A stretch of DNA of 64,000 nucleotides from an uncultured Candidatus Rokubacteria bacterium. GTDB taxonomy: Bacteria > Methylomirabilota > Methylomirabilia > Rokubacteriales > DASRDR01. The translations under genes and the position numbers were made by a program. Below are positions 3,323 through 45,682 of the stretch, piece after piece. Positions within the stretch are counted from its first letter, which is position 1. Every line of letters starts with the position of its first letter. The stretch is taken from NCBI GenBank assembly GCA_963708025.1, contig CAVPSB010000016.1:1-64000 (forward strand), in the 5' to 3' direction. A model generated the notes under the pieces. That model was not told the DNA's origin. It did not search any database and saw only the letters and a list, made by a program, of their open reading frames with translations.

Positions 3323-3444
3323 CGCCGGGCCGATCCCCGTCGCAGCCCGTCGTCCTCGGTCGTCGCCGATCCTCGGCGTACTCGGAGTACGCCTCCGGTC
3401 GGCGACTCCCTGCGTCCTAGGGCTGCTCGGGGCTCGGCCCGGCG
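3323..3444 (+). repeat. Dispersed structured hairpin element family A, copy 1 (122 bp)
   Basis: 11-bp terminal inverted repeat CGCCGGGCCGA/TCGGCCCGGCG; homologous to 38039-38160 and 45431-45681. Confidence 0.9.
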
Positions 3445-3490
3445 ACCAGAGGTGGACTTAGAGGTGGACTCGATGGCAGGAGGGGGTTCG

Positions 3491-5846
3491 ATGGAGCTGC
3501 GTGACATCGGGATCGTACGGGCGCTCGGCTGGGAGCGGACGGCGGACGGGGTCGCCTTCCCGTGCGTCACCACCGGGCTCGCGGCGGCCCGGGTCACCCT
3601 GCACGCGGTCGCCCCGCGGGTGGTGCGGGTCCGGATCACCCCGGGCGCCGTGCCCGAACCGAAGGGGTTCAGCTACGTGATCGGGCAGCCCGCCCCCGGA
3701 GGGTGGAGCGTCGAGGAGACGGACGGCGGCGTGATCCTGCGCACGGAGCACCTCGCCGTCGAGGCCACGCCTGCAGCCGTGGTCCCTCACGTTCCGCTCG
3801 GCGGACGGCGGCCTCCTGACCCACGAGGTGCCCGACGACACCAACTTCGCCGCCCACCGCCTCGGCCCACCGCCCGGCTTCCTGGCCGAGAGCCTGCCGG
3901 GCGATCCCGTCCGCCGGGTCGCCGCCGTGGTGGAGACCCTCCTGCTCGATCCCGAGGACCACTTCTACGGCGGGGGCGAGCGATTCACGCGCCTGGACCA
4001 GGTCGGCCGGACGGTCCGCACCTGGAACCGCAACTCCTACGGGGCCCGCTCGGAGCTGGCCTACAAGACCGTCCCCTTCCTGGTCGGCAGCCGCGGCTAC
4101 GGCCTCTTCGTGGACGTCCCGACCGCGGTGACGTTCCACCTCGGCAGCCGCTCGAACCGCACCTACACCATCGAGGCCCCCGGCCGCGAGCTGGACTACT
4201 ACCTGATCGCCGGGACGCCCAAGGAGATCCTCGGCGCCTACACCGACCTCACGGGGAGGCCGGCGGTGCCGCCGGCCTGGGCGCTCGGCCTGTGGGCCTC
4301 GACGTGCTTCGTCCGGTTCACCGAGGCGTCGGTGCTGGAGCAGGCCCAGCGGCTGCGCCGCGAAGGGATCCCCTGCGACGTCTTCCACCTGGACTCCTTC
4401 TGGCAGCGCGCACTCATGTGGTGCGACTTCGAGTGGGACGCCGCCCGCATCCCCGATCCCCGGCGCCTCCTCGCCGAGCTGCGCCGGCAAGGGTTCCACA
4501 ACTGTCTCTGGATCAACCCCTACGTCTCCATCCAGAGCGCGCTCTACCGGGAAGGTGTCCAGGGGGGCTACTTCCTGCGCCGGCCGGACGGCAGCGTCTA
4601 CGAGCCCATCCTGTGGAATCAGCGGACGGAGCGGGGCATGGGCCTCTGCGCCATCGTGGACTTCAGCAACCCCGAGGCCACCCGCTGGTACCGCGGGAAG
4701 CTCGACGCCCAGCTCGCCCTGGGGGCGGACTCGTTCAAGCCGGACTTCGCCGAGGAGATCCCCGAGGACGCCCGCTTCGCGAACGGGCTCACGGGCGCCG
4801 AGATGCACAACCCCTATCCCCTCCTCTTCCAGCGCGAGGCCTTCGAGGCGACGCGGGCCCACGCCGGCGAGGGCCAGGCGGTCATCTTCGCCCGCAGCGC
4901 GGCGCCCGGGGTCCAGCGCTACCCGGGCCACTGGTCGGGCGACTCGGAGTGCACGTTCCCGGACCTCGCCAACACGCTGCGGGGCGGCCTGGCCGCGGCC
5001 ATGAGCGGGCTCGCCTGGTGGAGCCACGACATCGGGGGCTTCTGGGGGGACCCGACGCCGGAGCTCTACGTCCGCTGGGCGCAGTGTGGCCTCTTCGCCT
5101 CGCTCGCCCGCTGCCACGGCGCCACCCCGCGCGACCCGTGGCTCTTCGGCGAGGAGGCGCTGGACATCTTCCGCCGCTACGCGCGGCTGCGGAGCCGCCT
5201 CGTCCCCTACCTCCTGAGCTACGGTGGGGAGGCGGCGGAGACCGGCGTCCCGGTGATGCGGCCGATGGTGCTGGAGCTCCCCGAGGACCCGGCCGGCTAC
5301 GCCTTCGACCTCCAGTATTTCCTGGGCCGCGAGCTGCTGGTGGCGCCGGTGGTGAGCGCCGGCGGCCGGGTGACCACGTACCTCCCCCGCGGACGCTGGC
5401 TCGACTGGTGGAGCGGCGCGGTCCACGCGGGCCCCACGACGCTCCGCCGCCAGGTGCCCCTCGAGGAGCTGCCGCTCTACGTCCGGGAGGACAGCCTGGT
5501 GGTGCTCGGCCCCGAGCGGAGCCACGTCGGCGAGCGGCCGGCCGACCCGCTCACCGTGGAGGCCTTCGTCACCACCGAGGCGCGATTCACGGTGCGGGGC
5601 GAGCCGGGGCAGCTTCAGCTCGCCTGCCGGCGCGAGGGCGGCCGGACGACGTTCGAGGCCAGCGCGGCGCCCGTGACCTACGAGCTGCGCCTCCACGACC
5701 ACGCCGCGCCGGCCACGGTCACCGCGGACGGCCAGGCCGTGCCCCGGCTCGAGCCGGCGGCGCTGGCCGGCGCCGACCGGGGCTGGACGACGGACGGCCG
5801 GACCGTGGTGGTCAAGGCCCGCGCGCGGCAGATCCGGGTGGAGTGA
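3491..5846 (+). CDS. Glycoside hydrolase family 31, YicI/alpha-xylosidase-like (frameshift near 3775)
   Basis: Nucleophile motif FKPDFAE, acid/base WSGD, WSHDIGGF, PVMRPM; N-terminus in ORF 3452 frame, body in ORF 3828..5846. Confidence 0.88.
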
Positions 5847-5857
5847 CGGAGGACGGC

Positions 5858-6499
5858 ATGACCATGAACCGACCGTCGCGCGAGGCCGCCTGGGCCCTCC
5901 TCACCGAGTACACGCAGAACCAGTCGCTCCGGCGGCACGCGCTCGCCGTCGAGGCGACGATGCGCGAGCTGGCCCGCTCCTCCGGCGTCGGCAACCCGGG
6001 CGAGGTCGAGACCTGGGGCCTGGTCGGCATGCTCCACGACTTCGACTACGAGCGCCACCCGACCGAGCAGGAGCACGTCTGGCGCGGCATGGAGATCCTC
6101 AAGGAGCGCGGCTGGCCGGAGGAGATCATCCGGGCCGTCGGCGGCCACGCCTTCTACACCGGCATCGAGCGGGTGACGCCCCTCCAGAAGGCGATCCTCG
6201 CGGCCGACGAGCTCACCGGGTTCGTGGGCGCCTGCGTGCTGGTGCGGCCGACCAAGAAGCTCGCCGACCTCCCGGTCGAGAGCGTGGTCAAGCGGCTGAA
6301 GGAGAAGTCCTTCGCGCGGACGGTGGACCGGCGCTACGTCTACCAGGGCGCCGAGGAGTGGGGCGTCCCCCTCCCCGACCTCGTCGCGCTCGTCATCCGC
6401 GCCACCCTCCCGATCGCCGACCACCTCGGCCTCGACGGTCGCCCCGCCGACCCCCTGCCGGACACCCCCTGCCCGCCCCCGCCACCGGCCCCGGCCTAG
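5858..6499 (+). CDS. HD-domain (HDIG-type) putative metal-dependent phosphohydrolase
   Basis: GGAGG RBS; 'LRRHALAVE...GMLHDFDYE...ADELTGF...KEKSFAR' motifs. Confidence 0.85.
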   Translation: MTMNRPSREAAWALLTEYTQNQSLRRHALAVEATMRELARSSGVGNPGEVETWGLVGMLHDFDYERHPTEQEHVWRGMEILKERGWPEEIIRAVGGHAFYTGIERVTPLQKAILAADELTGFVGACVLVRPTKKLADLPVESVVKRLKEKSFARTVDRRYVYQGAEEWGVPLPDLVALVIRATLPIADHLGLDGRPADPLPDTPCPPPPPAPA

Positions 6500-6746
6500 C
6501 TCGATTCATTCGACCAGGAACTCGGGCCCGAACACGGCGGCGAGCACCCGGAGCAGCAAACCGGATTGCACGCGCTGATACCAACCGTGTGCCGCGCGCT
6601 ACGATCCCGTGATATCGACGACCTCCTTGGTTCTCTTGATCGGCACCTACCGTACCCGCCGAGCGCCCGCGGGTCCGTGAGCGGAGTTACGTGCCGCACG
6701 CCGATCCCTGGCTGTCGGCCGTCGTCGCCGTCACCGGCGGCTGATT

Positions 6747-8721
6747 TCAGGGGTCGTCCGGTCGCAGCCGCCGCGCTTCTCCGTCCGACAGGGTCTTGGT
6801 CTCCGCCGCGAGTCGAACCCAGTGTCTCCGGGTCAACCTTCGCCGCCGCGTGCTCGAGCAGGACCATGGCCATCTCCGCGACCGTCGATGCGGCCAGGAG
6901 CTCCCGCATCGGCGGCTCCACGCCGAAGGCGGCCGGGATCCGGGCAAAGACCCTCGACGCCAAGAGCGAGTCCCCTCCAAGGTCGAGGAACCGGTCGTGA
7001 ATCCCGACCCGGTCGAGGTCGAGCACCTCGGCCCAGATTCCGGCGAGCGTCTGCTCGAACGCGGTCGTCGGCGCGACGAACGTGGTGTCGAGGGCCTGCC
7101 GCCCGGTCCCCGGCTCGGGCAGCGCGCGTCGATCTACCTTGCCGCTCGGTGTGAGGGGGAAGGCATCCAGGCACACGAAGGCGGCCGGGACCATGTAGTC
7201 CGGCACCAGCTCGGCGAGAAAACGGCGCAGGTCGCTCACAGTTGGTCCCGGGGCAGATGTCACGGCCAGGTAGGCCACCAGACGGGTGTCGCCATGCCGG
7301 TCCTGCCGGACTGCCACGACCGCGTCCCGTACGGCCGGGTGACCGACCAGGGCGGTCTCGATCTCGCCGGGCTCGATCCGGTGGCCTCGCACCTTCACCT
7401 GGAAGTCCTTCCGGCCGAGGTGCACGAGACAGCCGTCCGGCAACATCCGGCCCAGGTCCCCGGTTCGGTACACGCGGGCCTCTGTCCCGGCGGGATCGGG
7501 CAGGAAGGCCTCCTGGGTGAGGTCCGGCCGCCGCCAGTACCCGGGCGAGAGGTACCGGCTCCGCACCGCGACCTCGCCGGTGCGGGCACCAGTATCTCCG
7601 TCCGGCTGCTCGTCCAGCAGCAGCACTTCCTTGTCCGGCACCGCGTAACCCACGGGTACGGATGCGTCCGTGATCGGCGTGTCCCGGTCGAGAAAGTAGC
7701 AGGAGAAGGTCAGCGCCTCGCTCGTGCCCATTCGGTTGACGAAGATGCAGTCCGACGAGAAGTGCTGCCGGTAGGCCTCTACGTCGGTCCGGTAGACAGG
7801 CTCCCCGGCCAGGAAGATCAACCGAAGTCTCGGGAATTGCTCCCCACCAATCAGCGACGCCACGAAGTGGCGGAACAGCGTGGGGACTGACCGGTAGATG
7901 GTGATGTCCTGCCCGAGGAGCCAGGTGGCGAGCGCCGGGAGCCCCTCCCGCACGACATCGAACGGGTAGAGCCCGCTTCCGTTGAGCAACGCGGCGTAGA
8001 TCGTCCGGACGGAATCGGCAAAGCTGCATGAGGAGAGGAGCACCAGCCGGTCTTCCGGACAGTAGTGGGCGGCGTTCGTATAGTGCATGACATCGTGGAG
8101 CACGTTGCGGTGGGTCTGGGGTACCCCTTTCGGCCGCCCGGTGGAGCCCGACGTGTAGAGGATGAAGGCCGGCCCGTCCGGCGACGGCGCCACCCCGGGG
8201 CGCTCCAGCGGGAGGTCGGGCCCGAGCGCGTCGACGGTCACCACGGGAACGACCCCCCGGGACAGGTCCTCCGTCGCGCGCCGGTTCCGGGCGTTCGTAA
8301 GGATGAGCGCGGCCTGCGAATCCTCCAGGATATAGGCGAGCCGGGCCGCCGGGTAGGTGGAGTCGAGCGGCACGTACGGCTTCCCCGCCTTGAGCGCGCC
8401 GAGCATGGCGGCGATCACCTCGGCATCGTGTTCGAAGAGCAGCGCTACCGGCCCCACACCGTGGCCCTCTCCACGCAGGACCGCGTGGGCGATGCGGTTC
8501 GCCATCCGGTCCAGCTCGAGGTACGAGAGCGCGCGGTGCCGGGTCTGGACGGCCAGCCGGCCGGGACTGGTCTGCGCCTGGGCCTCGAAGCGCTCGGGGA
8601 TCGACCGCTCCAGGGCGTCCCGTGGAAAGGGCACGAAGGTCCCGGCGGGATGGAAGCATCTGCCCCTGACTCGCTCCTGCTCCCTCGGCAGCCTCACGCC
8701 TCGGGCACTCTCGCGATCCAC
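6747..8721 (-). CDS. Standalone NRPS-like adenylation-thiolation protein A1-T (frameshift near 6812)
   Basis: YTSGSTGRPKG, YRTGDLG, QVKVRGHRIEPGEIE, PLTPSGKVDR, LGGDSL; GTG start with AGAGG RBS; tail in ORF 6747..6980. Confidence 0.9.
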
Positions 8722-8834
8722 CTGGCACCTCTCACCGGTCAGCGGCGGTCGCCTTCCGCCACCGAACCATCTGGAGTACCGGACCCTTCTGAGGTACCGC
8801 GGCCCGATGATACACCACCACAAGCGCAGCCATG

Positions 8835-8915
8835 CCGATCCAGGCGTTCACCATGGACCGATCTCGGTGTTCACGTTCGGCCGATCTGAGCGTTCACGAT
8901 GAGCCGATGCGCGCA
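8835..8915. mobile_element. 23-bp tandem repeats resembling an IS21-family terminal region (remnant)
   Basis: CCGATC-N3-G(C/T)GTTCAC units at 8835, 8858 and 8881 plus a degenerate unit at 8904 ending in CGCA. Confidence 0.55.
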
Positions 8916-8948
8916 CCCATGGGACGCGAGCAGCTCACGGAGCGCGGC

Positions 8949-11900
8949 TCACGCTACGGCGATCGCCGCCGCGAGCCCGGGGAGGTTGACGGCGGCGATC
9001 ACGGTCGCCATGGACACGCTGATCCCGAGGTCGGCGCGGATGCGGTTCGCGAGGACGAGCGCCCCGATCGAGTCCAGTCCCAGGTCGAGGAAGGCCGTGT
9101 CGTCGCGCACCTCGGCCGCGGGAAGACCGACCATCTGGGCCACGCTCTCCCGAAGGTACTCGATGAGCTGCCCCCGCGGATCACCGCCTTTCGCGCGCTC
9201 CAGGTACGGTGTCTTGTGCGACGACCGACGCACGGCGTCGGCGGGCGGCGCGCCCCGGTGCGCCAACCGGTCCAGCAGACGCGGGCGCGTTCCGGTCGGC
9301 AGCGCGCCGAGGTACGTCTGCCGGCGTAACTGACGCACCTCGAACCCGGCGATCTCCGCGACGACGCGGCCGGCCTCGTCGAAGAGGAGCGCGTCACCGG
9401 CCTTCGACGGGGCGTCCACGGCGTAGCGGGCCCGCGCCTGTCCGTGGCACCAGAGCTGGTGGTCCCCGGGACGCTCGAAGAACGCGAAGCGGCCGATGGT
9501 GAACGGCACGTAGGCCACGCCGCCCTCGGCGAGGGCCAGCGTTTCGAACGCCCCGCCGAAGAACAGCGTCTGGAAGCACGCCTCGATCGCGCCGGGGGCC
9601 AGCGGGTAGAGGTCAGCCACTTCCGCCAGCGGGGGCGGCGCTGTCCGGGCCACCGCCTCGTTGTCCCCCTGCCAGATCGTCTCGATCCAGCGAAATGCCG
9701 ATCCGGTGTTCGCCCCGGGTGCCCATGCCAGCTCGTAGAACGCCGAGCCGCTCATGGGGAGCGTGCACCGCCGACGTAAGGCGTCGAGATCGACGGCTGC
9801 TCGGGGTGGCGCGTCCGGCAGTCGCAGCCGGCCCGTCACGTGCAGCGTCCACGCGTCGGCGTCGTGCGGCTCGGGACCGTCCGCGCGGCTCACGAGGCGC
9901 AGGCTGTAGGCGCCGTCGTCCTCGGGCGCCAGCACCACCTGGATGGTGCGCGCCCCGTCTCCAGGCAGCACCAGCGGTCGCAGGAAGCACAGCTCCTCCA
10001 GCACGCACGCACGCGGCCCGAACGCCGCTTCGACCGCCGACAGAAACAGGGTCAGGTCACTTGACGCCGCCACGACCACCGTCCCGAACAGCCGGTGATC
10101 GCCGAGGTGCGGCACTGCCCGTGGCGACAGCGTGGCCTCGAACCGGATCTCGGACGAGAACGGCAGCGACAGACGGCGCCCCAGTAGCGGCCTGGCGGGC
10201 GTTTCCACTGGCGTCGTCGTCGCCACTGGCGGATCGACCCAGTGACGCTGGCGTTCGAACGGGTAGGTCGGCAGGTGCAGGCGCCGCCGCTCATATGGGG
10301 CGTCGAAGCCGCGCCAGTCCACCGGCACGCCGCGCACGTAGAGCGTGCCCAGGCTGCGGAGGAGCGGCTCCCAGTCCGGCTCGTCCCGGCACAAGCTGGG
10401 CAGCCAGCCGTCGGCGACGTCTGGCACGCGCTCGCGTGCCATCTCTCGCAGGATCGAGTCTGGCCCGATCTCGACGACCAGCGTCACGCCGCGCACCCGG
10501 AGCGCCCGCAGCGCATCAGCGACGCGCGCTGGGTCTCCGACGTGGTCCCGCCAGTATGTCGGTGTGGCGATCTGGGTGCCGACCAGCGCGCCGGTCACCG
10601 GGGAGACGAGGTCAACGCGCGGGCGGCCGAGGCGGACCTTGCCCGCGGCCCGCTCGAAGGCGTCCCGACCTCGCGCCGCGACGAGCCGAAGGCCGTCTTC
10701 CAGCCCGATGACGCCGGCCACACAGGCGGCGGCGAGCTCGCCTTGGCCGAGTCCCAGGGCCACGTCTGGCTCGACACCCCACGCGCGCCACAGCTCGGCC
10801 AGCGCGACATGCAACGCGAAGAGCGCCGCCTCTGGAGAGGCGGGCGGCCGGCCCAGCCCGGGGTCGCGGGCGCCGAGCTCGGAGCGGTCGCGACCAGCGC
10901 CCGAAAGGGCGTCGCAGCGGTCGAGTGTCGCGCGGAAGACGGGCTGCGTGGCGCGAAGCTCGCGGCCCACGCCGGCATGGTGCGCGCCCTCTCCGGTGAA
11001 CAGGAACGCGATGACCGGCCGCGCAGCGGCCTCCACGCCTGCCTGCGCGCGCCCGGCGGTCTCACCGGCGAAGGCGGCGAGGCGCTCATGAAGGTCCTCT
11101 ATGCTCCCGGCGTCGATGGCCAGGCGGTGCTCGAACGGGGCGCGCCCGGTGTTGGCCGTGAAGCAGACATCGGCGAGAAGACCCGGGCCGGTGGCCAGGT
11201 GGTCGGCATAGCGCCGGGCTAGCTCCCTCAGCGCCGTCTCGCTGCGGGCCGACAGCGCCAGCACGTGCCGGGGCCGCTCCGGTTGGCGGGACGGCGGGCG
11301 CGGCGGGGGCGCCTCCTCGAGCACGACGTGGCAGTTCGTTCCGCCAATGCCGAGGGACGTGACGCCCGCCCGCCGGGGCGCTCCGTCCGCGCGCCACGGC
11401 GAAAGCGTCCGGACGACGAAGAACGGGCTATTCTCGAAGTCGATCGCGGGGTTGGGCGCGTCGAAGTGCAAGCTGGGGGGGATCTGGCGGTGCTGGAGCG
11501 CCAGCGCCGTTTTGATCAATCCGGCGACCCCCGCGGCCACGTCGGTGTGCCCGAGATTGGTCTTTACCGAGCCGATCCCGCAGAACCCCGTCGCGGCGGT
11601 CGCCCGACGGAATGCGGTCGTCAGTCCCTCGATCTCTATGGGATCGCCGAGCGGGGTGGCGGTGCCGTGCGCCTCGACATAGGTGACGGAGCGCGGATCG
11701 ACGCCGGCGACCGCCTGCGCGAGGGCGACGACCTCGGCTTGCCCGCGCGCGCTGGGCGCCGTGAAACTGACCTTGCCCGCCCCGTCGTTGTTGATCGCCC
11801 ACCCCTGGATCACGGCGTAGACAGCGTCGCCGGCGGCGACGGCGTCCTCGAGCCGCTTGAGCACCACGACGCCAACCCCGTCGCTGAGGACCGTTCCCCG

Positions 11901-34884: not shown

Positions 34885-34909
34885 CCAGGCGGAGAGAGAC
34901 GGCGGACCG

Positions 34910-36064: not shown

Positions 36065-36067
36065 GCC

Positions 36068-37108
36068 TTACTTCTTCGGTTCCGACTTCATGTCGTAGCG
36101 CTTCTGCCACTCGGCGAGGATGCGGGCCCGGTTGGTGGCGGCCCACTGGAAGTCGTTCTTGGCCATGTGCTGCAGCATGTTGGCGGGCAGGAACTCGATC
36201 GGCTGGGACATCTTCGCGATGGCAACGACCGCGTAGCCCTCGTTGTAGAGCTTCAGGGCCTTGTCGGTGATCGTCCAGTCGACGAACGTCTTGGCCGTCT
36301 CGAGGTTCTTGGTGCCCTTGACGATGGCGGTCGCCTCCATGTCCCACCCGGAGCCTTCCGTGGGGAAGACGATGTCGAGCGGCGCCCCCTGCTTCTTCAT
36401 CCGGGCCGCCCGGAACTCGAAGGAGACCCCGATCGGGTACTCGCCCGCCCCCGCCATCGTGCAGGGCTTGGAGCCGGAGTGCGTGTAGACCGCGACGTTC
36501 TCGTGGAGCGCGTCCATGAACTTCCAGCCCTCGGGCTCGCCGAAGATCTGGAGCCAGCTCGAGACGTCGAGGAAGCCGGTGCCCGACGAGGCCGGGTTGG
36601 GCATGACGATCGTCCCCTTGTAGACGGGCTTGGTCAGGTCCTTCCAGGAGGCGGGCTTGGGCAGGTTCTTCTTCTGGGCCTCGACCGTGTTGAAGCAGAT
36701 GGCGGCGACCCAGGCGTCCATGCCGACCCAGGCCGGCGGATTGTCCTTGTCGCGGAACTGCGCGTCGAGCCGCTCCAGGCCCTTGGGGGCGTAGGGAAGC
36801 AGCATCCCCTCGGGCTTGAGCACGAGCAGGCTCGTCGCGGCCAGACCCCAGATGACGTCCGCCTGCGGATTGGCCTTCTCGGCCAGGAGCTTCGCGGTCA
36901 CGACGCCGGTCGAGTCACGGACCCACTTGATCTCGATGTCGGGGTTGTCCTCGTTGAACCGCGCCGCGTATTTCTTGAGGTCGTCGGCCTCGATCGCGGT
37001 GTAGACCGTCAGGGTCGTCTTCGCCATCGCGCCGCCGGCGACGAGGCCGACCACAGCGACGGCGCCGAGCAGGAATGCACTCAGCCTCACGAAGCTCCGT
37101 TTGGTCAT
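36068..37108 (-). CDS. Putative 2-aminoethylphosphonate ABC transporter substrate-binding protein (PhnS-like)
   Basis: Signal peptide; 'WVRDSTG.VTAKLLAEKANPQAD', MPNPASSGTG, YTHSGSKPC. Confidence 0.85.
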   Translation of the reverse strand: MTKRSFVRLSAFLLGAVAVVGLVAGGAMAKTTLTVYTAIEADDLKKYAARFNEDNPDIEIKWVRDSTGVVTAKLLAEKANPQADVIWGLAATSLLVLKPEGMLLPYAPKGLERLDAQFRDKDNPPAWVGMDAWVAAICFNTVEAQKKNLPKPASWKDLTKPVYKGTIVMPNPASSGTGFLDVSSWLQIFGEPEGWKFMDALHENVAVYTHSGSKPCTMAGAGEYPIGVSFEFRAARMKKQGAPLDIVFPTEGSGWDMEATAIVKGTKNLETAKTFVDWTITDKALKLYNEGYAVVAIAKMSQPIEFLPANMLQHMAKNDFQWAATNRARILAEWQKRYDMKSEPKK

Positions 37109-37234
37109 CGCATCCTCCCTGGAAGAAGGGTCGGGGCGGGTCCGGTATGGCGGAAGCATAGAGCCCCCGGCCGCCGCGCGCAAGCGGGAAAAGCACTGTA
37201 ATCGGGCCTTCATGGGCCCGTGATCCGGCCGTAA

Positions 37235-38017
37235 CTACTGGGCGATGAACCCCCCGTCCACGACCAGCTCGGTGCCGGTCACGAACGAGGACTCGTCGGA
37301 GGCGAGGAAGAGGGCGGCGAAGGCGATCTCCCGGGGCTGGGCGATCCGGCCGAGCGGGATCCCGCTCCTGAACTCCTTCCGTAGCTCGTCGGTGAGGTAC
37401 GGTGCCTGGAGCGGCGTGTCCACGATCCCGGGGTGGATGATGTTGCAGCGGATCCGGTCCTGGCCAAACTGGATCGCCAGCGACTTGGTCAGGGAGATCA
37501 GGCCCCCCTTGGCCGCGGTGTAGGCGTCCTGGGCCCGGGTGAAGCCGGCCAGGGCCGAGACCGACCCGACGTTGACGATGGACCCCCCGCCGGCCCGCCT
37601 CAGGTGCGGGATGCCGTGCTTGGTCACCCAGAAGACCGACTTGAGGTTGATGGCCATCACCCGGTTCCACTGGGTGTCGTCGGTCTCGAGGACGGAGCGG
37701 TCGCGGTCCTTCCAGAGGACGCCGGCGTTGTTGTAGAGGATGTGCAGCCCGCCGAAGCGGCGGACCGTCTCGGCGATCATCCGCTCGACGTCGGCTTCGA
37801 CCGCCACGTCGCCGGCGACCGCGACGGCCTGGCCCCCGGCCTTCTCCACGAGGGCCACGGTCTCCTCGGCGGCGGCCTTGTCGATGTCGGCCACGCCGAT
37901 CCTCGCCCCGTGCCGCGCGAAGAGGATCGAGGCCTCGCGGCCCATGCCCATCCCGGCCCCGGTGATGAACGCCACCTTGCCGGCCAGTCGCGGTCCCAGC
38001 CCCGCCTCGTCGCTCAT
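37235..38017 (-). CDS. Short-chain dehydrogenase/reductase
   Basis: TGAGMGMG, NNAG, YTAAK. Confidence 0.92.
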   Translation of the reverse strand: MSDEAGLGPRLAGKVAFITGAGMGMGREASILFARHGARIGVADIDKAAAEETVALVEKAGGQAVAVAGDVAVEADVERMIAETVRRFGGLHILYNNAGVLWKDRDRSVLETDDTQWNRVMAINLKSVFWVTKHGIPHLRRAGGGSIVNVGSVSALAGFTRAQDAYTAAKGGLISLTKSLAIQFGQDRIRCNIIHPGIVDTPLQAPYLTDELRKEFRSGIPLGRIAQPREIAFAALFLASDESSFVTGTELVVDGGFIAQ

Positions 38018-38038
38018 GACCCTACCCCTCGGCATCAG

Positions 38039-38160
38039 CGCCGGGCCGAGAACCGAGCAGCCCTAGGACGCAGGGAGTCGCCCACCGCAGGCGTATGCCG
38101 CATACGCCGAGGATGGGCGACGACCGAGGACGACGGGATGCGAAGGTTATCGGCACGGCG
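38039..38160 (-). repeat. Dispersed structured hairpin element family A, copy 2 (122 bp)
   Basis: Reverse-complement homolog of 3323-3444 with compensatory changes. Confidence 0.9.
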
Positions 38161-38161
38161 C

Positions 38162-39526
38162 TCAGATCCGCTCGAAGTTGCGGGTCAGCTCCCAGCAGGT
38201 GACGGCCTGGTCGAAGGCCTGCTGCTCGAGGCGCGCGGTGTGGAGGTAGTGCTCCACCACCTCCTCGCCGAAGGCGTCCCGCGCCACCCGCGACACCGCC
38301 AGCCCCTCGATCGCCTCGCGGAGCGTCTTCGGCACCTGGGGCAGGCTGGCGTCCTCGTAGGCGTTCCCCTCGTAGACCGCCGGGGGCTTCAGCTTCTTGC
38401 CGAGGCCGTGGAGGCCCGCCGCGATCGTCGCCGCGAAGGCCAGGTAGGGGTTGGCGTCGGCCCCGGGGATCCGGTTCTCCACCCGGAAGCCGCTCCCCTC
38501 GCCGCAGAGCCGGAAGCCGCAGGTCCGGTTGTCCCAGCCCGCCACGATGCGGGTGGGAGCGAACGAGCCGGCCTGGTAGCGCTTGTAGGAGTTGACGTAG
38601 GGCGCGTAGAAGTACGAGAGCTCCCGGGCCATCGCCATCTGGCCGGCCAGCCAGTGGCCGAACAGCGGCGAGCCCATCCGCTTCCCGCGCTCGAAGAAGA
38701 GGTTCCGCTTCCCCGCCGGGTCCCACAGGCTCGAGTGGAGGTGGAACGAGGAGCCGGCCGCGCCCATGTCGTACTTGGCCATGAACGTGACCGACCGGTC
38801 CTGGGCATGGGCGATCTCCTTCACCCCGTGCTTGTAGAGCGTGTGGCGGTCCGCCATCTCGAGCGCCTCGGCGTACCGGAGGTTGATCTCCTCCTGGCCG
38901 CAGCCCCACTCCCCCTTGGAGAACTCGACCGGCACCGCGGCGCCTTCCATCCCGTTCCGGATGGCGCGGACCAGGTCCTCCTCCTTCGTCGTCTGCAGGA
39001 TGTGGTAATCCTCCAGGTACTGGGACACCGGGGTCAGGTCGTGGTAGCGCTTGGTCCGGGCCTCGGCGAAGGACTCCTTGAAGAGGTACAGCTCGAGCTC
39101 GGAGGCGACCATCACGCGGTAGCCCGCCTTCCGGGCGCGCTCGATCTGGCCCTTCAGCACCCAGCGCGGGCTGACCGCGATCGGCTCGCCCTCCTCGGTG
39201 TAGAGGTCACAGAAGACGAGCGCCGTCTTCGTCAGCCACGGGATCCGCCGGAGCGTCGCCAGGTCGGGGACCGCCTTCATGTCCTGGTAGCCGGTCGCCC
39301 ACGACGCGAACTTGTAGCCGGGCAAGGGCTCCATGTCGACGTCGACCGTCAGGAGGTAGGCGCAGGCGTGCACGCCCTCCCCGGCGATGTGCTCGACGAA
39401 GTGGCGGCCGACGACCCGCTTCCCCATCAGGCGTCCCTGCACGTCGGGGAACACGGTGAGGACGGTGTCGATCTCGTCCTGGCGGACGAGCGCGGTCAGC
39501 TCCTTGAGATCGAGGTTCCCGGCCAT
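38162..39526 (-). CDS. Glutamine synthetase-family protein (gamma-glutamyl-amine ligase-like)
   Basis: DVQGRLMGK, ELELYLF, GSSFHLHSS, DNRTCGFR, ENRIPGADANPY. Confidence 0.9.
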   Translation of the reverse strand: MAGNLDLKELTALVRQDEIDTVLTVFPDVQGRLMGKRVVGRHFVEHIAGEGVHACAYLLTVDVDMEPLPGYKFASWATGYQDMKAVPDLATLRRIPWLTKTALVFCDLYTEEGEPIAVSPRWVLKGQIERARKAGYRVMVASELELYLFKESFAEARTKRYHDLTPVSQYLEDYHILQTTKEEDLVRAIRNGMEGAAVPVEFSKGEWGCGQEEINLRYAEALEMADRHTLYKHGVKEIAHAQDRSVTFMAKYDMGAAGSSFHLHSSLWDPAGKRNLFFERGKRMGSPLFGHWLAGQMAMARELSYFYAPYVNSYKRYQAGSFAPTRIVAGWDNRTCGFRLCGEGSGFRVENRIPGADANPYLAFAATIAAGLHGLGKKLKPPAVYEGNAYEDASLPQVPKTLREAIEGLAVSRVARDAFGEEVVEHYLHTARLEQQAFDQAVTCWELTRNFERI

Positions 39527-39546
39527 GGGCCTCTCGGCGGCCAGTC

Positions 39547-40362
39547 TCAGTACGTGAAGACGTCCTCTCGCCGATGCTGCAGCGCCGGCAGCGACTGCCG
39601 GATCCGCTCCTGCTCGCCGAAGTCGGCGTCGGCGATGATCACGCCCTCCCGGTACCCGGCTCGGGCCCGGACGACGCCCCACGGGTCCACCACCATCGCG
39701 TTCCCGTAGCAGACGTTGGCGGGAGGGTGCGGCCCGCACTGGGCGGCGGCGAGCACCCAGACCTGGTTCTCGATCGCCCGCGCCCGCAGCAGGACCTCCC
39801 AGTGGTCCTTGCCGGTGTCCATCGTGAAGGCCGAGGGCACCGTGACCAGCCGCGCGCCCTGCGCCGCCAGACGGCGGTAGAGCTCCGGGAACCGGAGGTC
39901 GTAGCAGATGGAGAGCCCGACCGGCGCCCGCCCGAGCTGGGTCACCACCGTCTCGGCGCCGGGGGCGATCGTCGCCGACTCCTGGTAGGTCTTGCCGTCG
40001 ACTTCCACGTCGAAGAGGTGGAGCTTGCGGTAGCGCGCCACCAGGTCCCCGTCCGGGCTCACCGTGATACTGGTGTTGAAGAAGCGCTCCGAACCCTCGA
40101 CCGCCTCCAGGTACGAGCCGCCGACCAGCCAGAAGCGGTACCGCGAGGCCCACCGGCCCAGCAGCTCGGAGGTCTCCCCGGGGATCGGCTCCGCCACCTC
40201 GGCGTGGCGCTTGCGGGGGCCAAGGTAGGTCCACAGCTCGGGCAGGACGACGAGGTCCGGGCCCCAGGCGGCGGCCTGGGCCACGAGCCCCTCGGCCCGC
40301 TCGAGGTTCACCGCCTTGTCATCCTGACTGTTCATCTGCACGAGCGCGACGCGCACGGGCAC
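39547..40362 (-). CDS. Carbon-nitrogen hydrolase, Nit1/deaminated glutathione amidase-like
   Basis: LPE, YRKLHLFD, ICYDLRFPE, TGKDHWEVLLRARAIEN. Confidence 0.9.
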   Translation of the reverse strand: MPVRVALVQMNSQDDKAVNLERAEGLVAQAAAWGPDLVVLPELWTYLGPRKRHAEVAEPIPGETSELLGRWASRYRFWLVGGSYLEAVEGSERFFNTSITVSPDGDLVARYRKLHLFDVEVDGKTYQESATIAPGAETVVTQLGRAPVGLSICYDLRFPELYRRLAAQGARLVTVPSAFTMDTGKDHWEVLLRARAIENQVWVLAAAQCGPHPPANVCYGNAMVVDPWGVVRARAGYREGVIIADADFGEQERIRQSLPALQHRREDVFTY

Positions 40363-40497
40363 CTCCTGGGATCAGGGTGAAGTACCAGCATGGTAGCGCA
40401 CGCGACCGGCCCTGGCCAGCCTTCGTGGCGCCGGCTCAGTGCCCGCAAAGACCCCCCGGATGTTCTCAGAGAGCGTGGAAGGAATCGGGGCCTCCTG

Positions 40498-40556
40498 CTC
40501 CCCCCTCCCCCAGTGGGTGGGGGAGGGGGGCTGGGGGGTGGGAGGGAGGTCCCGAA
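40498..40556 (+). repeat. G/C-tract REP-like element family B, copy 1
   Basis: CCCCCCTCCCCC-GTGGGT-GGGGGAGGGGGG...GGGAGGTCCCGAA; also at 48046-48110 (minus) and 60489-60548. Confidence 0.85.
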
Positions 40557-40560
40557 GATC

Positions 40561-41700
40561 TCAGTGGACGGAGAGAGGGACCGGGGGCAGGAGCAGGAAC
40601 AATAGGATGAGCGCGAAGACGCCGAGCGCCTGCCGCTTCCCGTCCAGGGGGGTGATGTCGTCCATCGGGGGTCCGTGCTGGAAGCCCATGAGCCCGACGA
40701 TCAGCGCGGACCAGATCAGCCAGGTCGGACTGCCGAAGTAGAGGCCGACCGCCATGAGGCAGCCGACCGCCAGCTTCGAGATCAGGGCATGCCGCCGTCC
40801 CCACATCGCGTAGACCAGGTGGCCGCCGTCGAGCTGACCGGCCGGGATCAGGTTCAGCGCCGTGACGAAGAAGCCGAACCAGCCGGCGACGCCGACCGGG
40901 TCGAGCAGCAGGACCTGGTCGTCGCCCAGTGGGCCGAAGACGAGCCGCTGGATGAGCAGGAGGAGCAGGGAATCGCCCAGCTCCACCCCGCCCTCGGTCA
41001 GGCCGGCCGACGGGAGGATGGTCGATCGCCACAGCCCGTAGACGAAGATGGGCACCGCCAGGACCATCCCGGCCAGCGGGCCGGCCACCGCCATGTCGAA
41101 GAGCGCCCGGCGATCGCGCGCCGGGCCGCGCAAGCGGATCACCGCGCCGAGCGTGCCGACCGGAAACAACGGCGGCGGAGCGGGAATGAAGTAGGGCAGG
41201 CTGATCGGCATCCCGTGCCGGCGGCCGAGCGTATAGTGGCCGAACTCGTGGACGGTCAGGATCGACAGCAGGGAGGCGGCGAACGGAAGCCCCACCAGCA
41301 AGCGACTGGGATGCGCCACCAGCTCCGACAGGGGCACGCTGGGCCAGGCCCCGGCCAGGAGCGTCGTGACGACAGTCGCCAGGAAGAGCGCGAGGTGAAG
41401 CCACGGATTCGAGCGATCCGTCACCGCCGCCCGCGGCAGGGTGTAGAGCCAGGTCATCCCGCCTTCCTGGCGGAGGAAAGGGGTGTACCCCTGCGGCTCC
41501 AGCCGGCCACGCAGGACGTCGATCGCGGCGGCCGGCGGCAGCCGGAGGTGACCGCCGAACGCGAGTGACCGCCCCAAGAGCTGGCGCTGCTCGATGGCGA
41601 GGACGTCCTCGACCTGGCCCCGGAGCAGGGCCTCCAGCGGGAGCAGGTCTTCCCAGCGCGGGGGCGCTTCAGGCGGGCGGCGGCGGGGCCAGAATCGCAC
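40561..41700 (-). CDS. Site-2 protease (M50 metalloprotease)
   Basis: HEFGH, AGP and NLIPAGQLDGG motifs; hydrophobic segments. Confidence 0.92.
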   Translation of the reverse strand: MRFWPRRRPPEAPPRWEDLLPLEALLRGQVEDVLAIEQRQLLGRSLAFGGHLRLPPAAAIDVLRGRLEPQGYTPFLRQEGGMTWLYTLPRAAVTDRSNPWLHLALFLATVVTTLLAGAWPSVPLSELVAHPSRLLVGLPFAASLLSILTVHEFGHYTLGRRHGMPISLPYFIPAPPPLFPVGTLGAVIRLRGPARDRRALFDMAVAGPLAGMVLAVPIFVYGLWRSTILPSAGLTEGGVELGDSLLLLLIQRLVFGPLGDDQVLLLDPVGVAGWFGFFVTALNLIPAGQLDGGHLVYAMWGRRHALISKLAVGCLMAVGLYFGSPTWLIWSALIVGLMGFQHGPPMDDITPLDGKRQALGVFALILLFLLLPPVPLSVH

Positions 41701-43384
41701 GTGCAGGCAGCCTCGCCGTCACGGTACCACGGCTTTCCGGGGCCAACAACGCGCCGAGCGCCTTTCGCTCCGCGCAGGCGAGCGTCGTCAGCTCGATCGA
41801 GCCGACCGGACCCGTCCACGTCAGCTCGTGGCGGCCGGCGGTGAGCCGGACCAGGCCCGGCGGGACCGGTTCTCCGTCGATGCTCACGCGGAGCGCGGGG
41901 CTCGCCGTCAGCCGGTACGTCTCGCCGTGGAGCAGGTCCACCGAGGCCCGGCCACCGTCGCCGGGCGGCGTCTCGCGAATCGCCACGCCGGCCACCAGGA
42001 GTCCCCCGGGCATCGCCACGTAGTGACGGCGGAGGAACTCCTTCATCGGCCCGACCAGCGCCTCGAGCCGCGTGTCGGGATACGCCACGCGCGGCCGGGC
42101 CTCGCGGGCATCGTCCACGAACCGTTCCTCGGGAATCTTCCCCTCGGCGATCCACTTCCGGATGCCCCGGATCAGGACGCGGTAGCGATAGGCGGCCGGG
42201 CGGAAGACGGCGAGCGCGGTGCCATCCAGCACCGGCTCCCCCTGGCACGTGTGGGCGAGGAGCTGTCGCACGACGTCGAGCTGGCCCGAGTTGCGGTTCA
42301 CGACCGCCGTCTGGATGGAGATCGTCGCCGGGCCGACCAGCCCGATCAGCACGGCGAGCGCCGCCACCACCCGGGGCCCGGCCAGCGCGGCGGCCAGCGC
42401 GTGCCCGGCGTAGACGGCGGCGCCCGCCACCACCGGAAGCCAGGCGTGCCGGTAGACCGCGGGGGTGGTGGGCAGGAGCAGCGCCACCGTCGCTCCCAGC
42501 ACGGGCGCCAGCACCGCCGGGTGCACCGGGTGGTCGAGCAGCGTGCGGCCCTCGCGCCGGACGGCGATGGCCAGGCCGACCACGGCCAGGGCGAGGAAGC
42601 CGAAGCCCTCCTCGCTCACCGGCGCCTCTTTGGTGAAGTCGGCGAACTCGAGGGCGCTCGCCAGGACGTGCTCCCGGAAGCCGTACAGCGCCGTCGAGCC
42701 GCCGTGAAGCCAGAGCCCGCCGAAAAGCGCCAGGAGCGGGGCGGCGGCGCCGGCGGCGAGGCGCGCCCAGCCGGCCAGGACCCGGCCCACCGGATCCCGT
42801 CCCCGCCGCCACCCGACGACAAGGAGGACGGCCGCCACGCCCGGCGCCTCGTACACCGCCTTGGGCGTGAAGGCAACCGCCACCCCGAGCGCGAGACCCG
42901 CCGCCCAGAGCCAGCCCGGCCGTCGGGACTCCTGCCAGCGCACGATCGCCAGGAACGCGGCCAGCGAGAAGACGAGCGCCGGCCCGTCCGGTCGCACCTC
43001 GACCGTGAGCTCCACGAAGCGCGGCAGGAAGGCGAGCAGCGCCACCGCCGCCAGCGCCGTCCCGGTCGACAGCCGGCGCCCGAGCCGGTAGACGAGGCCG
43101 AGCGCCACGACCGCCATCAGCGCCATCAGCGTCCGGCCGGCGAAGTACACCGCTGGGCTTTCGGCGAAGGCGCGGGTGAGCGGCGCGAGCAGGTAGTAGA
43201 GGAGGGGACTGTGGTGCTCCCAGAACTCGGCGAACGGCACCCGGCCCTGACCCACCAGCCAGGCCGCCTGGAGATGCTGGCTCTCGTCCGGGTTCAGTGC
43301 CTTGTTGGCGACGGTGCCGATCCACACCAGGGCGGCCGGGGCCAGGAGCGCGAGCGCCGCCCGACGTGGGAGGGACGGCGTCAA
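41669..43384 (-). CDS. GT39/ArnT-like membrane glycosyltransferase
   Basis: 'NPDESQH...EHHSPL...EVRPD', many TM helices; TTG start overlaps the upstream stop. Confidence 0.7.
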   Translation of the reverse strand: MTPSLPRRAALALLAPAALVWIGTVANKALNPDESQHLQAAWLVGQGRVPFAEFWEHHSPLLYYLLAPLTRAFAESPAVYFAGRTLMALMAVVALGLVYRLGRRLSTGTALAAVALLAFLPRFVELTVEVRPDGPALVFSLAAFLAIVRWQESRRPGWLWAAGLALGVAVAFTPKAVYEAPGVAAVLLVVGWRRGRDPVGRVLAGWARLAAGAAAPLLALFGGLWLHGGSTALYGFREHVLASALEFADFTKEAPVSEEGFGFLALAVVGLAIAVRREGRTLLDHPVHPAVLAPVLGATVALLLPTTPAVYRHAWLPVVAGAAVYAGHALAAALAGPRVVAALAVLIGLVGPATISIQTAVVNRNSGQLDVVRQLLAHTCQGEPVLDGTALAVFRPAAYRYRVLIRGIRKWIAEGKIPEERFVDDAREARPRVAYPDTRLEALVGPMKEFLRRHYVAMPGGLLVAGVAIRETPPGDGGRASVDLLHGETYRLTASPALRVSIDGEPVPPGLVRLTAGRHELTWTGPVGSIELTTLACAERKALGALLAPESRGTVTARLPARAILAPPPPA

Positions 43385-44886
43385 CGACAGTGACCGGCGC
43401 CTTCCGGCAGCAGCACGAAGCGCACCCGCAGCGTCTGCCTCCGGGAGAAGTGATACCGCGCCTCGGCGAGTCGGACCGGCGCGTCGTCGCCGAGCGTCAC
43501 CCCGAGGGCGACGGCGAGCCACCTCCGCAACTGGTGGGGGACGGTCTCGTCCCGCTCCTTGTCCCACGCGACGAGGCACTGACCGCTCCCCCGGCGGGGC
43601 GGGAGATAGTCCGGGTTGGCCAGCCGGATCACGCGCGAGACGGGAAACGCCAGTCGCAGGTTGCCGGCCAGCGATCCCTCGCCGACCACGATCGTGCCCC
43701 GGGTGAACCCCGCCGCCCGGAGCTGGGCGGCGATCCGGTCGTAGGGGGCGTTCAGGTGCGAGGCGTTGCCGAGCTGGTCTCCGCGGAAGACGTTGACGGC
43801 GAAGGTCACCAGGACCAGCAGCTCGGCCGCAACCAGCACGGCGGTCAGCCGCCGGACCCGGACGGCGTCGGCCCGGCCGTCCACGCGCGCGAGGAAGTAG
43901 AGCGGGAAGAGGAAGAAGGCCGGCAGGAACCACCGAAACTTGAGGTAGGTCAGCCCGCCGAAGAGCGCGCCGGCCAGGAGGATGCCGAACTCGGCCAGGA
44001 AGAAGCGTCCGATGAGCCGGTACCCGGCCGGGGGCGCCGCCGGCGCTCCCCGGCGTCGCCAGGCCGCGGGAAAGAGGGCGAGGAAGACGATCCAGAGGGG
44101 CGTCAGGTAGTAGAGGCTGACCCGGACCATGTAGTAAATGGCGGAGGCGAGGCCCTGGAGGTACGGCTCCGGAGTGCCCGGGTCCACCTCCTCCGCGTAG
44201 ATCCGCGTGATCGAGAAGGCGCGCTGGTAGAACCAGACCCCGTAGGGCAGGAGAAGGAGCGCCGCCACCGCCAGCGTCAGCCCGATGCGCGGGTCCCGCA
44301 GCCGGGCGCGGAAGCGATCCACGGTGAGGGCCCCGATCAGCATGGCGCCGGCGAAGAGCGAGAAGCTGAACTTGGAGAGGAGCCCGAGCCCGAGCGTCAG
44401 GCCCAGGGCCAGGTACGTTCCCGTGCTGCCGGTGGCCTCGAGCCGGAGGAGGACGTAGAACATCGCGGCCGCCGCGGCGAGGGCGGTCAGGCTGTGGGTC
44501 AGCGCCTCGTGGACGACCCAATTGATGGGCACGATCAGCCAGAGTGACAGCGCGGCCAGCGCGGCGAGCGGCGGCTGGCTCACGATCCGCCGGGCGCTCA
44601 GGTAGACGAACAGGTAGGCGACCCCGAGGACGGCGTACTTGACGACGGTCAGGCCGGCGACGCCCGGGCCGAAGAGCTGGAAGGCGACCCAGACGAGCCA
44701 GTTGTAGAGCGGCGGCTGGCGGGAGAGGTACCCCCACTCGAGCGTCTGCGCGAGCACGGCCTCGCGGGAGTCGTCGATCGTCAGGATCGGCGAGAGCCCG
44801 ACGCGCAGGAGGACGTGGGCCAGGCCGTACGCGGCCAGGAGGGCCACGAAGCCGAGAGGCCGCCACCAAACCACGCCGCGCGCCAC
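43381..44886 (-). CDS. GT39/ArnT-like membrane glycosyltransferase
   Basis: 'DDSRE...WGY..QPPLYNWL...GLLSKF', many TM helices. Confidence 0.78.
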   Translation of the reverse strand: MARGVVWWRPLGFVALLAAYGLAHVLLRVGLSPILTIDDSREAVLAQTLEWGYLSRQPPLYNWLVWVAFQLFGPGVAGLTVVKYAVLGVAYLFVYLSARRIVSQPPLAALAALSLWLIVPINWVVHEALTHSLTALAAAAAMFYVLLRLEATGSTGTYLALGLTLGLGLLSKFSFSLFAGAMLIGALTVDRFRARLRDPRIGLTLAVAALLLLPYGVWFYQRAFSITRIYAEEVDPGTPEPYLQGLASAIYYMVRVSLYYLTPLWIVFLALFPAAWRRRGAPAAPPAGYRLIGRFFLAEFGILLAGALFGGLTYLKFRWFLPAFFLFPLYFLARVDGRADAVRVRRLTAVLVAAELLVLVTFAVNVFRGDQLGNASHLNAPYDRIAAQLRAAGFTRGTIVVGEGSLAGNLRLAFPVSRVIRLANPDYLPPRRGSGQCLVAWDKERDETVPHQLRRWLAVALGVTLGDDAPVRLAEARYHFSRRQTLRVRFVLLPEGAGHCR

Positions 44887-44956
44887 ACCGCGGGCGGCGG
44901 GGCCGGCCGTCGATCCCGGGACCGGCGTCGAGGCCGTCAGGGGACCGCCTCCCCCG

Positions 44957-45409
44957 CTACGCCGCGGGGCCGTCGACGAGCCGGGCGATCAGCGCCTTCG
45001 CAGGCGGGAGCCCGCCGTCGAGGTAGAGGGCGGCCAGCAGGGCCTCCAACGCCGTGGCCAGGATCGATTCCTTCTGCCGCCCCCCGCCCTGCTCCTCGCC
45101 GCGGCCCAGGTAGAGCTCGGCGGGCAGGTCGAGACGGACCGCCCACACGGCCAGGTTCGACGCCGAGACGAGGGCAGCCCGTCGCTGGGTCAGGGGGCCG
45201 GCGCCGTCCAGGGGGGCCCGGGCGGCCAGCAGCTCGGCCACCACCAGCCCCAGCACCGCATCGCCGAGGAAGGCCAGGGCCTCGTTGTGGGACGCGGGGG
45301 GATGCTCGTGAGCGTACGAGGGATGCGTGAGGGCGCGGAGGAGCAGCTCGGGGTCACCGAACGCGTGGCCGATCCGGCCCTCGAGCTCCCCCAGCGGAGT
45401 CGGCCCCAC
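44957..45409 (-). CDS. rnc: RNase III-family catalytic domain only, degenerate active site
   Basis: ALTHPSY, NEALAFLGDAVL, LGRGE, EALLAALYLDGG; sits downstream of fabF; no dsRBD. Confidence 0.75.
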   Translation of the reverse strand: MGPTPLGELEGRIGHAFGDPELLLRALTHPSYAHEHPPASHNEALAFLGDAVLGLVVAELLAARAPLDGAGPLTQRRAALVSASNLAVWAVRLDLPAELYLGRGEEQGGGRQKESILATALEALLAALYLDGGLPPAKALIARLVDGPAA

Positions 45410-45430
45410 GGCTGTGGCTGTGCTAGCTCC

Positions 45431-45681
45431 CGCCGGGCCGAGACCCGAGCAGCCCTAGGACGCAGGAAGGAGGCGGGCCGAGGCGTATGCCGCGATTGAT
45501 CACCTGGTCGCGACGGCTCGGGCCTGCGGCCCTCGCGACGTCGCTCCCTTGTGGGAGGCCCGCCGACGACCGAGGACGACCATAGGCCGGGACGTCCGCC
45601 CCCAGGCCGAAGGCCGTCCAATCGCCGCAGGCCGAGCGCGTCACGGCCGAGACGAAGGTTGCGACGGGTATCGGCACGGCG
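45431..45681 (-). repeat. Dispersed structured hairpin element family A, copy 3 (expanded, 251 bp)
   Basis: Same termini and GAGCAGCCCTAGGACGCAGG / GACGACCGAGGACGAC blocks, with internal insertions. Confidence 0.85.
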
Positions 45682-45682
45682 G

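Follow-up and report, generated by a model that had tools for sequence, protein, structure and literature searches.

What are the long hairpins that lie directly behind stop codons inside the operons of an uncultured Candidatus Rokubacteria bacterium, and what put them there? The question arises from a 64,000-nucleotide (nt) stretch of its DNA (positions 1 to 64,000 of contig CAVPSB010000016.1, assembly GCA_963708025.1; hereafter the window), in which a preliminary description had read a three-copy covarying hairpin element at 3323-3444 (+), 38039-38160 (-) and 45431-45681 (-). The copies are present at these coordinates, but three is the count for the window only and the genome carries hundreds. 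Our favoured reading, to which we give a probability of about 0.6, is that the hairpins are mobile repeats of DNA, non-coding and non-autonomous, which make up a large Rokubacteriales family and home to stop codons. It is built on features that we observe directly, namely the abundance of the repeats, their order-wide spread, their anchoring to stop codons in a fixed orientation and the stop preference of subfamilies, together with copies that are almost identical, orthologous sites with and without the element, and conserved pairing.

Using copy 1 as a BLAST query, we collected 225 non-overlapping loci from the window's own genome (G000; 8.17 Mb, 71% G+C, 99.67% complete). An nhmmer profile made from 63 full copies gave 238 matches in the same genome, and a covariance model built on copies from other genomes gave at least 148 (148 of the 150 candidates scored, a floor). 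Matches occur in 25 of 31 related genomes, belonging to several families of one order, and a two-block pattern recovered at least 79 loci in species-representative genomes; among the matches listed, the titles that name a group are all Rokubacteria or Methylomirabilota except one Actinomycetes, many others reading just "uncultured bacterium". The Actinomycetes-labelled match (L025, OY969703.1, 2299102-2299467) lies in a metagenome-assembled genome and has arms that are far diverged from the Rokubacterial copies; it may be due to a wrong label or a transfer, or be a repeat distantly related to the family. Rfam returned no match at gathering score for the whole window and none at E up to 10 for the region of copy 1 (3250-3520), and the literature searched, whose coverage did not extend to subscription journals and supplements, yielded no description of the family, in line with the earlier remark that it was not recognised as a named one.

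Many copies within the genome are nearly identical. Among 122 copies, the identity to the nearest neighbour has a median of 98.3%, 37 have a twin at 99% or more, and 47 copies, spread over 21 contigs, are joined by links of at least 97% identity; orthologous proteins from other genera share 65-91% identity.

Gene calls were taken from a heuristic based on G+C content at third codon positions (GC3), which gives 6091 open reading frames (ORFs) covering 80% of the genome. On these calls, 125 of the 238 copies lie between co-directional genes in the orientation of those genes and 12 in the opposite one, 17 lie between convergent and 10 between divergent genes, 29 fall apparently within an ORF, and 45 are far from any called gene or at a contig edge. 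Tabulated against the flanking genes, orientation is thus not random (125:12), and the co-orientation described for all three window copies is confirmed. An anchoring test that is independent of the gene calls looked for a stop codon 0-5 nt upstream, closing a co-oriented ORF of at least 60 codons with GC3 of at least 0.75. Such a stop precedes 95 of 138 intact 5' ends, against 2 of 213 on the mirrored 3' side and 29 of 2000 random positions (1.45%). The anchoring stops are TAG in 66 cases, TGA in 28 and TAA in one, whereas background stop use is 64% TGA, 30% TAG and 5% TAA. The choice also depends on the subfamily: copies with a GATGAG arm follow TAG 53 times, TGA 8 times and TAA once, and the others follow TAG 13 and TGA 20 times (Fisher p = 3e-6). 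Orthologues without the element terminate at the same codon, so the anchoring stops are the native ones of these genes.

The pairing is conserved as well. Copy 1 has an 11-bp closing stem, basal, middle and apical stems and two conserved internal-loop blocks; the basal stems quoted for the three window copies (CCCC/GGGG, AACC/GGTT and ACCC/GGGT) and the remaining quoted stems were recovered in our three-way alignment, as were both loop blocks in each copy. Copy 1 folds at -87.3 kcal/mol (z -8.1) and copy 2 at -65.9 kcal/mol (z -5.5), each into one long hairpin, with none of 200 shuffles as stable in either case. Across 121 distinct copies of the genome, 4437 of the 4891 cells at predicted pairs are Watson-Crick, and at many of these pairs two or three kinds of Watson-Crick pair are seen. 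In a set of 76 copies drawn from many genomes, the share of cells that pair is 82.2%, against 69.2% after shuffling, and none of 500 shuffles reaches this share. The selected secondary structure that had been proposed is supported by changes on both sides in 29 of 43 pairs and by a covariation score of 0.283, against 0.083 for shuffled and at most 0.067 for slid partners.

The long hairpin that forms the unit measures 83-227 nt and has constant outer arms and a modular interior, its commonest lengths being 122, 143 and 164 nt (38, 16 and 20 of 103 full copies). Each 21-nt step corresponds to a pair of mini-hairpins, CGTCC-TTC-GGACG and GCC-TTC-GGC, added at one of the blocks that had been called unpaired, and CGTCC is present in both of these blocks. 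Forms of 175-227 nt hold an extra module that is also seen in copy 3, and some units have the arms with the central hairpin missing. This second module (…TCTCGGCCGTGACGCGCTCGGCCT…GGACGTCCCGGCC…), located at about 45581-45655 (-) in copy 3, is found alone or nested elsewhere, after the ligase gene at L102 (G003) and after fabF at L115 (G001), and looks like a separate small hairpin family nested in the stop-codon family. An unrelated hairpin repeat with G/C tracts (…CTCGGAGGGGGG…CCCCCCTTCCGA…) occupies the same post-stop positions in other genomes, after fabF at L120 (G021) and L121 (G022) and after the ligase gene at L102.

Tails of 20-50 nt follow the hairpin in many copies. In the commonest subfamily (arm GGCCGATGAGCG), many copies have behind them a conserved tail, about 50 nt long and with CTAG at its end, for which we counted 67 matches, 51 of them adjoining a hairpin. 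The TAG-type unit reads TAG-CG-hairpin-tail-CTAG, and TA(G) alone is common to both sides; in three copies the left side has TAG and the right side TAA, so that in these only TA is shared. Read directly, the unit including its tail has unlike ends and no terminal inverted repeat. A subset of TGA-type copies has instead a tail, some 40 nt in length and containing a Shine-Dalgarno-like GAGG, ending in RTGA after 3-6 bases that match the left flank (for example GCAGTGAGCGG, TCGAGTGAG and GCCCCATGA); at least four of the six bases before the right TGA match the left flank in 7 of 30 TGA-type copies, against 8.3% between copies. At C12:410304, GCAGTGAGCGG stands on both sides, the left copy closing the upstream gene and the right copy opening the next one. 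For the TAG-type unit, an unrestricted search for duplications found nothing in excess; for the remaining copies the excess was small. In 5 of 12 TGA-type copies an ORF runs from the left RTG through the unit to the right-hand RTGA. For TAG-type copies, where a translated bridge was considered as well, the TAG-to-TAG length modulo 3 is 10/7/3 in 20 copies, which is indistinguishable from chance.

Orthologous junctions show the sites in different states. Among 13 loci with the ligase/SDR junction of copy 2, one relative (G023) is without the element and reads 'ATC TAG GCGCC ATG', in another (G006) a diverged copy of the family occupies this place, and eight have another gene there. At the fabF/rnc junction of copy 3 (12 loci), family hairpins with differing inner modules are present in G000, G001 and G006, a 13-nt remnant of an arm is left in G002, and G003, G005 and G020 have no element and spacers of 1-20 nt; three genomes of a large genus have unrelated spacers and two others different repeats. 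Filled, scarred and empty junctions imply that sites have been gained, lost and remodelled, and that some are old. At C12:409200-411500 (L142) of the window's own genome, a repeat unit is accompanied by an additional gene, about 270 codons long, whose start resembles a signal peptide, and the genes flanking this stretch are 3-46 nt apart in the three relatives whose junctions were read (G002, G003 and G005). A clean empty site for this TGA-type copy was not found, the relatives at the junction lacking the downstream gene too, nor was one found for another TGA-type copy, where synteny is broken.

From these features we propose the following route. The unit would insert directly 3' of a stop codon and in a single orientation, with TAG as the main target of one subfamily and TGA as that of others. 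The stop is kept on the left, and a matching short word, (C)TAG or RTGA with a few flanking bases, stands on the right. Where the target is an RTGA stop/start overlap, the right-hand copy would preserve the downstream start and the tail would supply a Shine-Dalgarno-like GAGG. Neither neighbouring gene would be damaged, which would explain how copies accumulate inside operons. Mobilisation would require the hairpin in cis, perhaps in the form of a single-stranded bottom strand, and the enzyme would act on the unit in trans. On this account the pairing is conserved because mobilisation, a role in the transcript, or both, depend on the hairpin. Some copies may additionally affect the stability or processing of operon mRNA. 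A fixed orientation where the target, CTAG, is palindromic speaks for strand-specific recognition or strong selection, and the match between the right-end word and the stop used by the subfamily suggests that the element has a part in specifying its own target. We put forward, tentatively and as an idea with the odds against it, a self-targeting element in which the right-end word sets both stop and orientation and the folded bottom strand is the substrate of a recombinase or nuclease outside the families tested.

Several points weigh against the mobile-repeat reading. Our searches of the genome for transposase and integrase families yielded no mobilising enzyme. The Y1_Tnp domain (PF01797) has no match in it, while 6 of 14 control genomes scored, and neither has the TnpB domain; no IS630-type DDE_3 domain rises above cut-off, the best candidate reaching 22.2 bits and containing a stop codon. 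The genome holds 15 insertion sequence (IS) genes, seven of IS110 type, three weak ones of IS91 type and five of IS4/5 type, and no copy lies within 2.4 kb of them, the sole hairpin within 4 kb of any being about 2.5 kb from an IS110-type gene. When an autonomous copy was sought as arm halves standing 0.6-6 kb apart, the two candidates obtained were rejected, as they enclose ordinary genes (peptidase M24, a solute-binding protein, a beta-eliminating lyase and ABC ATPases). There is no uniform target duplication, TAG-type units sharing TA(G) only and the TGA-type subset about 7-11 nt, and a repeat at the immediate flanks of the bare hairpin was seen in 1 of 71 and 0 of 32 copies. The fixed orientation could result from selection and not from the insertion mechanism, a fabF/rnc site filled in three genera also fits long retention with selection in place, and the gene calls behind the orientation counts are heuristic.

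Among the other explanations, the one that survives best, although we consider it unlikely, is a mRNA element selected by the host, i.e. a 3' stabiliser, a processing site for RNase III or RNase E or a cistron insulator whose position is kept by selection. It would account for the 125:12 bias relative to transcription, the highly stable folds of the sense strand, the compensatory changes in the stems and the filling of the fabF/rnc junction in three genera, and ERIC repeats, which are of similar size, are described as altering upstream mRNA stability in an orientation-dependent way (PMC2229807). The strand opposite to the mRNA, however, is the one with the better fold in 76 of 76 copies under RNA parameters (mean -73.7 against -58.0 kcal/mol) and in 75 of 76 under DNA parameters, which weakens the mRNA processing or stability alternative of the preliminary description. 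The non-canonical pairs on the sense strand of these copies also speak against it (A·C 187 versus G·T 22), although about 140 of the 187 A·C cells trace to two conserved columns, so that the excess represents few independent events; the copies of the window's genome have G·T 137 times, 107 of them at one pair, versus A·C 67 times. That the bottom strand is the folded one is a hint and not a result. In addition, near-identical copies on 21 contigs and subfamily-specific stops are traits of spreading DNA, and a placement within 0-5 nt is tighter than a stabiliser would need. Comparing four metatranscriptome contig sets with 37300-39300, we found short contigs, which record neither strand nor transcript ends, that cover the hairpin at 90-95% likeness, and for which carry-over of DNA is possible; since they continue into unlike flanks, they are other copies of the family and uninformative on transcription.

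Less probable still is an ordinary TA-targeting miniature inverted-repeat transposable element (MITE) of the Correia, ERIC or RUP type, in which the arms would be terminal inverted repeats and an IS630/Tc1-like transposase would act in trans. The size, long stem-loop and non-coding nature of the family agree with this class as it is described in PMC2229807, and TAG-type units are flanked by TA(G)...(C)TA(G/A), with just TA shared in the three copies mentioned above. Such a transposase is nevertheless missing above cut-off (the 22.2-bit DDE_3 candidate carries a stop), and the part that TA flanks, hairpin plus tail, has unlike ends in place of a terminal inverted repeat, the inverted repeats being the arms of the hairpin itself. 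A TA target is impossible for TGA-type copies, a palindromic CTAG or TA target predicts random orientation where 125:12 is observed, and the family is GC-rich, not AT-rich.

Elements of the IS200/IS605 style insert 3' of a short word in fixed orientation, do not duplicate the target and have a right end resembling it; the TGA-type subset, for its part, shows flanking repeats of 7-11 nt. The TAG...CTAG layout and the fixed orientation fit this style, as one might expect of a repetitive extragenic palindrome (REP), a REPIN or an IS200/IS605-derived palindrome moved as single-stranded DNA by a Y1 HUH transposase (TnpA, or a REP-associated tyrosine transposase, RAYT), and the better folding of one strand is in its favour too. 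In many copies the hairpin is moreover preceded by (C/G)TAG, like the GTAG tag of REPs (PMC3733652). We hold this route to be very improbable: besides the absence of Y1_Tnp and TnpB matches from the window's genome, Y1_Tnp is found in 11 of the 31 relatives, while all six genomes rich in the element (G000-G003, G005 and G006) are without it, the REPs described measure 20-40 bp (PMC3733652) against 83-227 nt for the unit, and no head-to-head dimers in alternating orientation were seen. The second proposal of the preliminary description thus stands as far as a dispersed repeat of the REP/MITE type is concerned, and its HUH/RAYT/IS200 route of mobilisation is unsupported.

The genome contains an integron-integrase-like gene (TIGR02249) in two adjacent frames (235.9 and 200.4 bits) at C24:97846-98792 (-), 81 nt from the contig end, and such genes score above cut-off in 8 of the 31 related genomes. 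That the hairpins are attC-like sites of an integron-type tyrosine recombinase, a gene and its hairpin forming a cassette whose bottom strand folds, is in our view the least credible account, for although a length of about 120 nt, an imperfect dyad with unpaired bases after a co-oriented ORF, better folding of the bottom strand, the gene at the end of C24 and the L142 unit preceding a gene missing from the three relatives' junctions would suit it, the window copies read directly have no GTTRRRY or RYYYAAC core at their ends, copies are scattered over many contigs among housekeeping genes without arrays, hairpin and tail are absent from 10 integrase loci of 2.2-3.9 kb, and integrase and element are not found together (G001 and G005, though rich in the element, have no integrase match, G024 and G028 have a full integrase without an element match).

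Within the window, the three junctions illustrate the family at the level of single genes, and the upstream genes named earlier (permease, GS-like ligase and fabF) were recognised again by their domains. Copy 1, a 122-nt hairpin that matches the covariance model at 131.1 bits, directly abuts the TGA stop (3320-3322, +) of an ABC permease gene (BPD_transp_1; ORF 2498-3322) and precedes a GH31 glycosidase gene, both co-oriented with it. Copy 2, again of 122 nt (125.2 bits), begins 1 nt after the TGA stop (38162-38164, -) of a glutamine-synthetase-like ligase gene (Gln-synt_C; ORF 38162-40234) and lies ahead of a co-oriented SDR gene. Its 3' tail CTGATGCCGAGGGGTAGGGTC (38018-38038, -), a short form of the tail of the TGA-type subset, contains a Shine-Dalgarno-like GAGGGG 6 nt ahead of the SDR start ATG (38017-38015), and the tail pattern GAGGGGTAGG..RTGAGYG recurs after other TGA-type copies. 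Copy 3 begins 1 nt after the TAG stop (45683-45685, -) of the gene for a FabF-type ketoacyl synthase (ORF 45683-46942), the gaps of 0, 1 and 1 nt agreeing with the 0-1 nt reported earlier, and the RNase III gene that follows is co-oriented as well. It is a 251-nt hairpin with the outer arms of the family and both loop blocks, and the alignment agrees with the claim that it carries internal insertions and keeps its termini: about 75 and 54 extra nt, at about 45581-45655 and 45501-45554 (-), are composed of small hairpin modules that other copies also contain. Immediately behind it, GGAGCTAGC (45422-45430, -) repeats the GGAGTAGC (45682-45689) that stands immediately ahead of it; this pair, noted by eye in this one copy, may be a target duplication, one that would include the stop codon.

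Some features of the neighbouring genes may be mentioned here. The GH31 gene after copy 1 (3452-5846, +) is apparently split across two frames: a plausible N-terminus (MELRDIGIVRALGW...) can be read for about 100 codons in the frame that ORF 3452-6499 uses, followed by Arg/Pro-rich nonsense, and the Pfam-matching body lies in the frame of 3828-5846, where the match to the N-terminal domain lacks profile positions 1-107. A frameshift, an error of assembly or a pseudogene may be the cause. Ahead of the GH31 start, in the interval that follows copy 1, AGAGGTGGACT occurs twice as a direct repeat, 2 nt apart (3448-3473, +). The RNase III gene downstream of copy 3 (44957-45409, -) has 150 codons and matches the catalytic domain only, no dsRNA-binding domain being reported for it in the domain scan. 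The proximity of a gene for a dsRNA nuclease to a 251-nt hairpin may be a coincidence, as the fabF-rnc order exists in relatives without the element.

Present by the hundred per genome in a major uncultured soil lineage, the repeats disrupt assemblies and gene calls, and a model of the family would improve Rokubacterial annotation, including that of start codons rebuilt by the repeat. If the favoured reading is right, docking at stops, the fixed orientation and the choice between TAG and TGA would show how a selfish element can colonise operons harmlessly, and they point to an insertion mechanism with an enzyme outside the usual families. Were the element indeed self-targeting, this mechanism would be a new, site- and strand-specific one that regenerates stop, start and ribosome-binding signals inside operons; if programmed by sequence, it would interest researchers on mobile DNA and builders of insertion tools. 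Should the hairpins also shape mRNA decay, they would constitute a genome-wide layer of operon regulation.

Set beside known systems, the family is best read as a member of the class of small bacterial mobile repeats, yet it fits none of the systems compared here. attC sites are imperfect palindromes of about 60-140 nt that follow a co-oriented ORF, contain unpaired bases and have one preferred folding strand. The hairpins resemble them as imperfect palindromes just after a co-oriented ORF with one strand preferred in folding, and differ from them in having no R''/R' core, no arrays and no link to integrase genes.

Tagged REPs and bacterial interspersed mosaic elements (BIMEs) are another point of comparison (see also Nunvar et al. 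2010, PMC2817692). GTAG and CGTC REPs are described as palindromes of 20-40 bp that lie mostly downstream of coding regions and are thought to be transcribed, those of the CGTC type being without a dedicated transposase (Di Nocera et al. 2013, PMC3733652). As in that account, the family consists of abundant palindromic repeats downstream of genes, between co-directional or convergent ones; (C/G)TAG stands before many copies, and CGTC words recur in the loop blocks. This (C/G)TAG is not a REP tag; it is the stop codon that ends the upstream gene. REPs are described as single stems, often head-to-head, whereas the family has composite hairpins of 83-227 nt in a single orientation, and no RAYT gene is present in the window's genome or in the element-rich genomes; the phyla that the tagged-REP paper (PMC3733652) names do not include that of the family.

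Of the bacterial MITEs, ERIC/IRU (127 bp), Correia/NEMIS and RUP elements are presented in the review of Delihas (PMC2229807) as stem-loop units of 100-200 bp with TA ends, Correia elements having forms of 107 and 155 bp and the orientation of ERIC being of importance for mRNA stability. The family has in common with them a non-coding unit of about 100-200 nt, long stem-loop transcripts, many copies and a location in transcribed intergenic regions, as well as TA at both ends of the TAG-type unit and modular length variants like those of Correia. It is distinguished from the elements as reviewed there by being GC-rich, placed within 0-5 nt of stops and nearly always co-oriented, by a unit and tail with unlike ends, by the lack of a cognate IS or IS630-type transposase in searches of the window's genome, and by a second subfamily that targets TGA.

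Mycobacterial interspersed repetitive units (MIRUs) offer a further parallel. According to Brown & Wade (2025, PMC12548453), they are apparently mobile, insert at start codons and contain an internal ORF coupled at -4 nt. On that description, both are small, non-coding, apparently mobile repeats at gene junctions of operons, oriented with the genes, whose insertion preserves the stop/start arrangement so that neighbours stay expressed; the unit of the TGA-type subset sits in a duplicated RTGA overlap, and 5 of 12 copies examined have a bridging ORF. The comparison is one of descriptions and not of sequences, and it extends across phyla; within it, our family is set apart by the long covarying hairpin that defines it and by a bridging frame without significant conservation (10/7/3 modulo 3 in 20 copies), and, most simply, by the codon that serves as the anchor, the start codon for MIRUs and the stop codon, TAG or TGA, for the hairpins of the Rokubacteriales.

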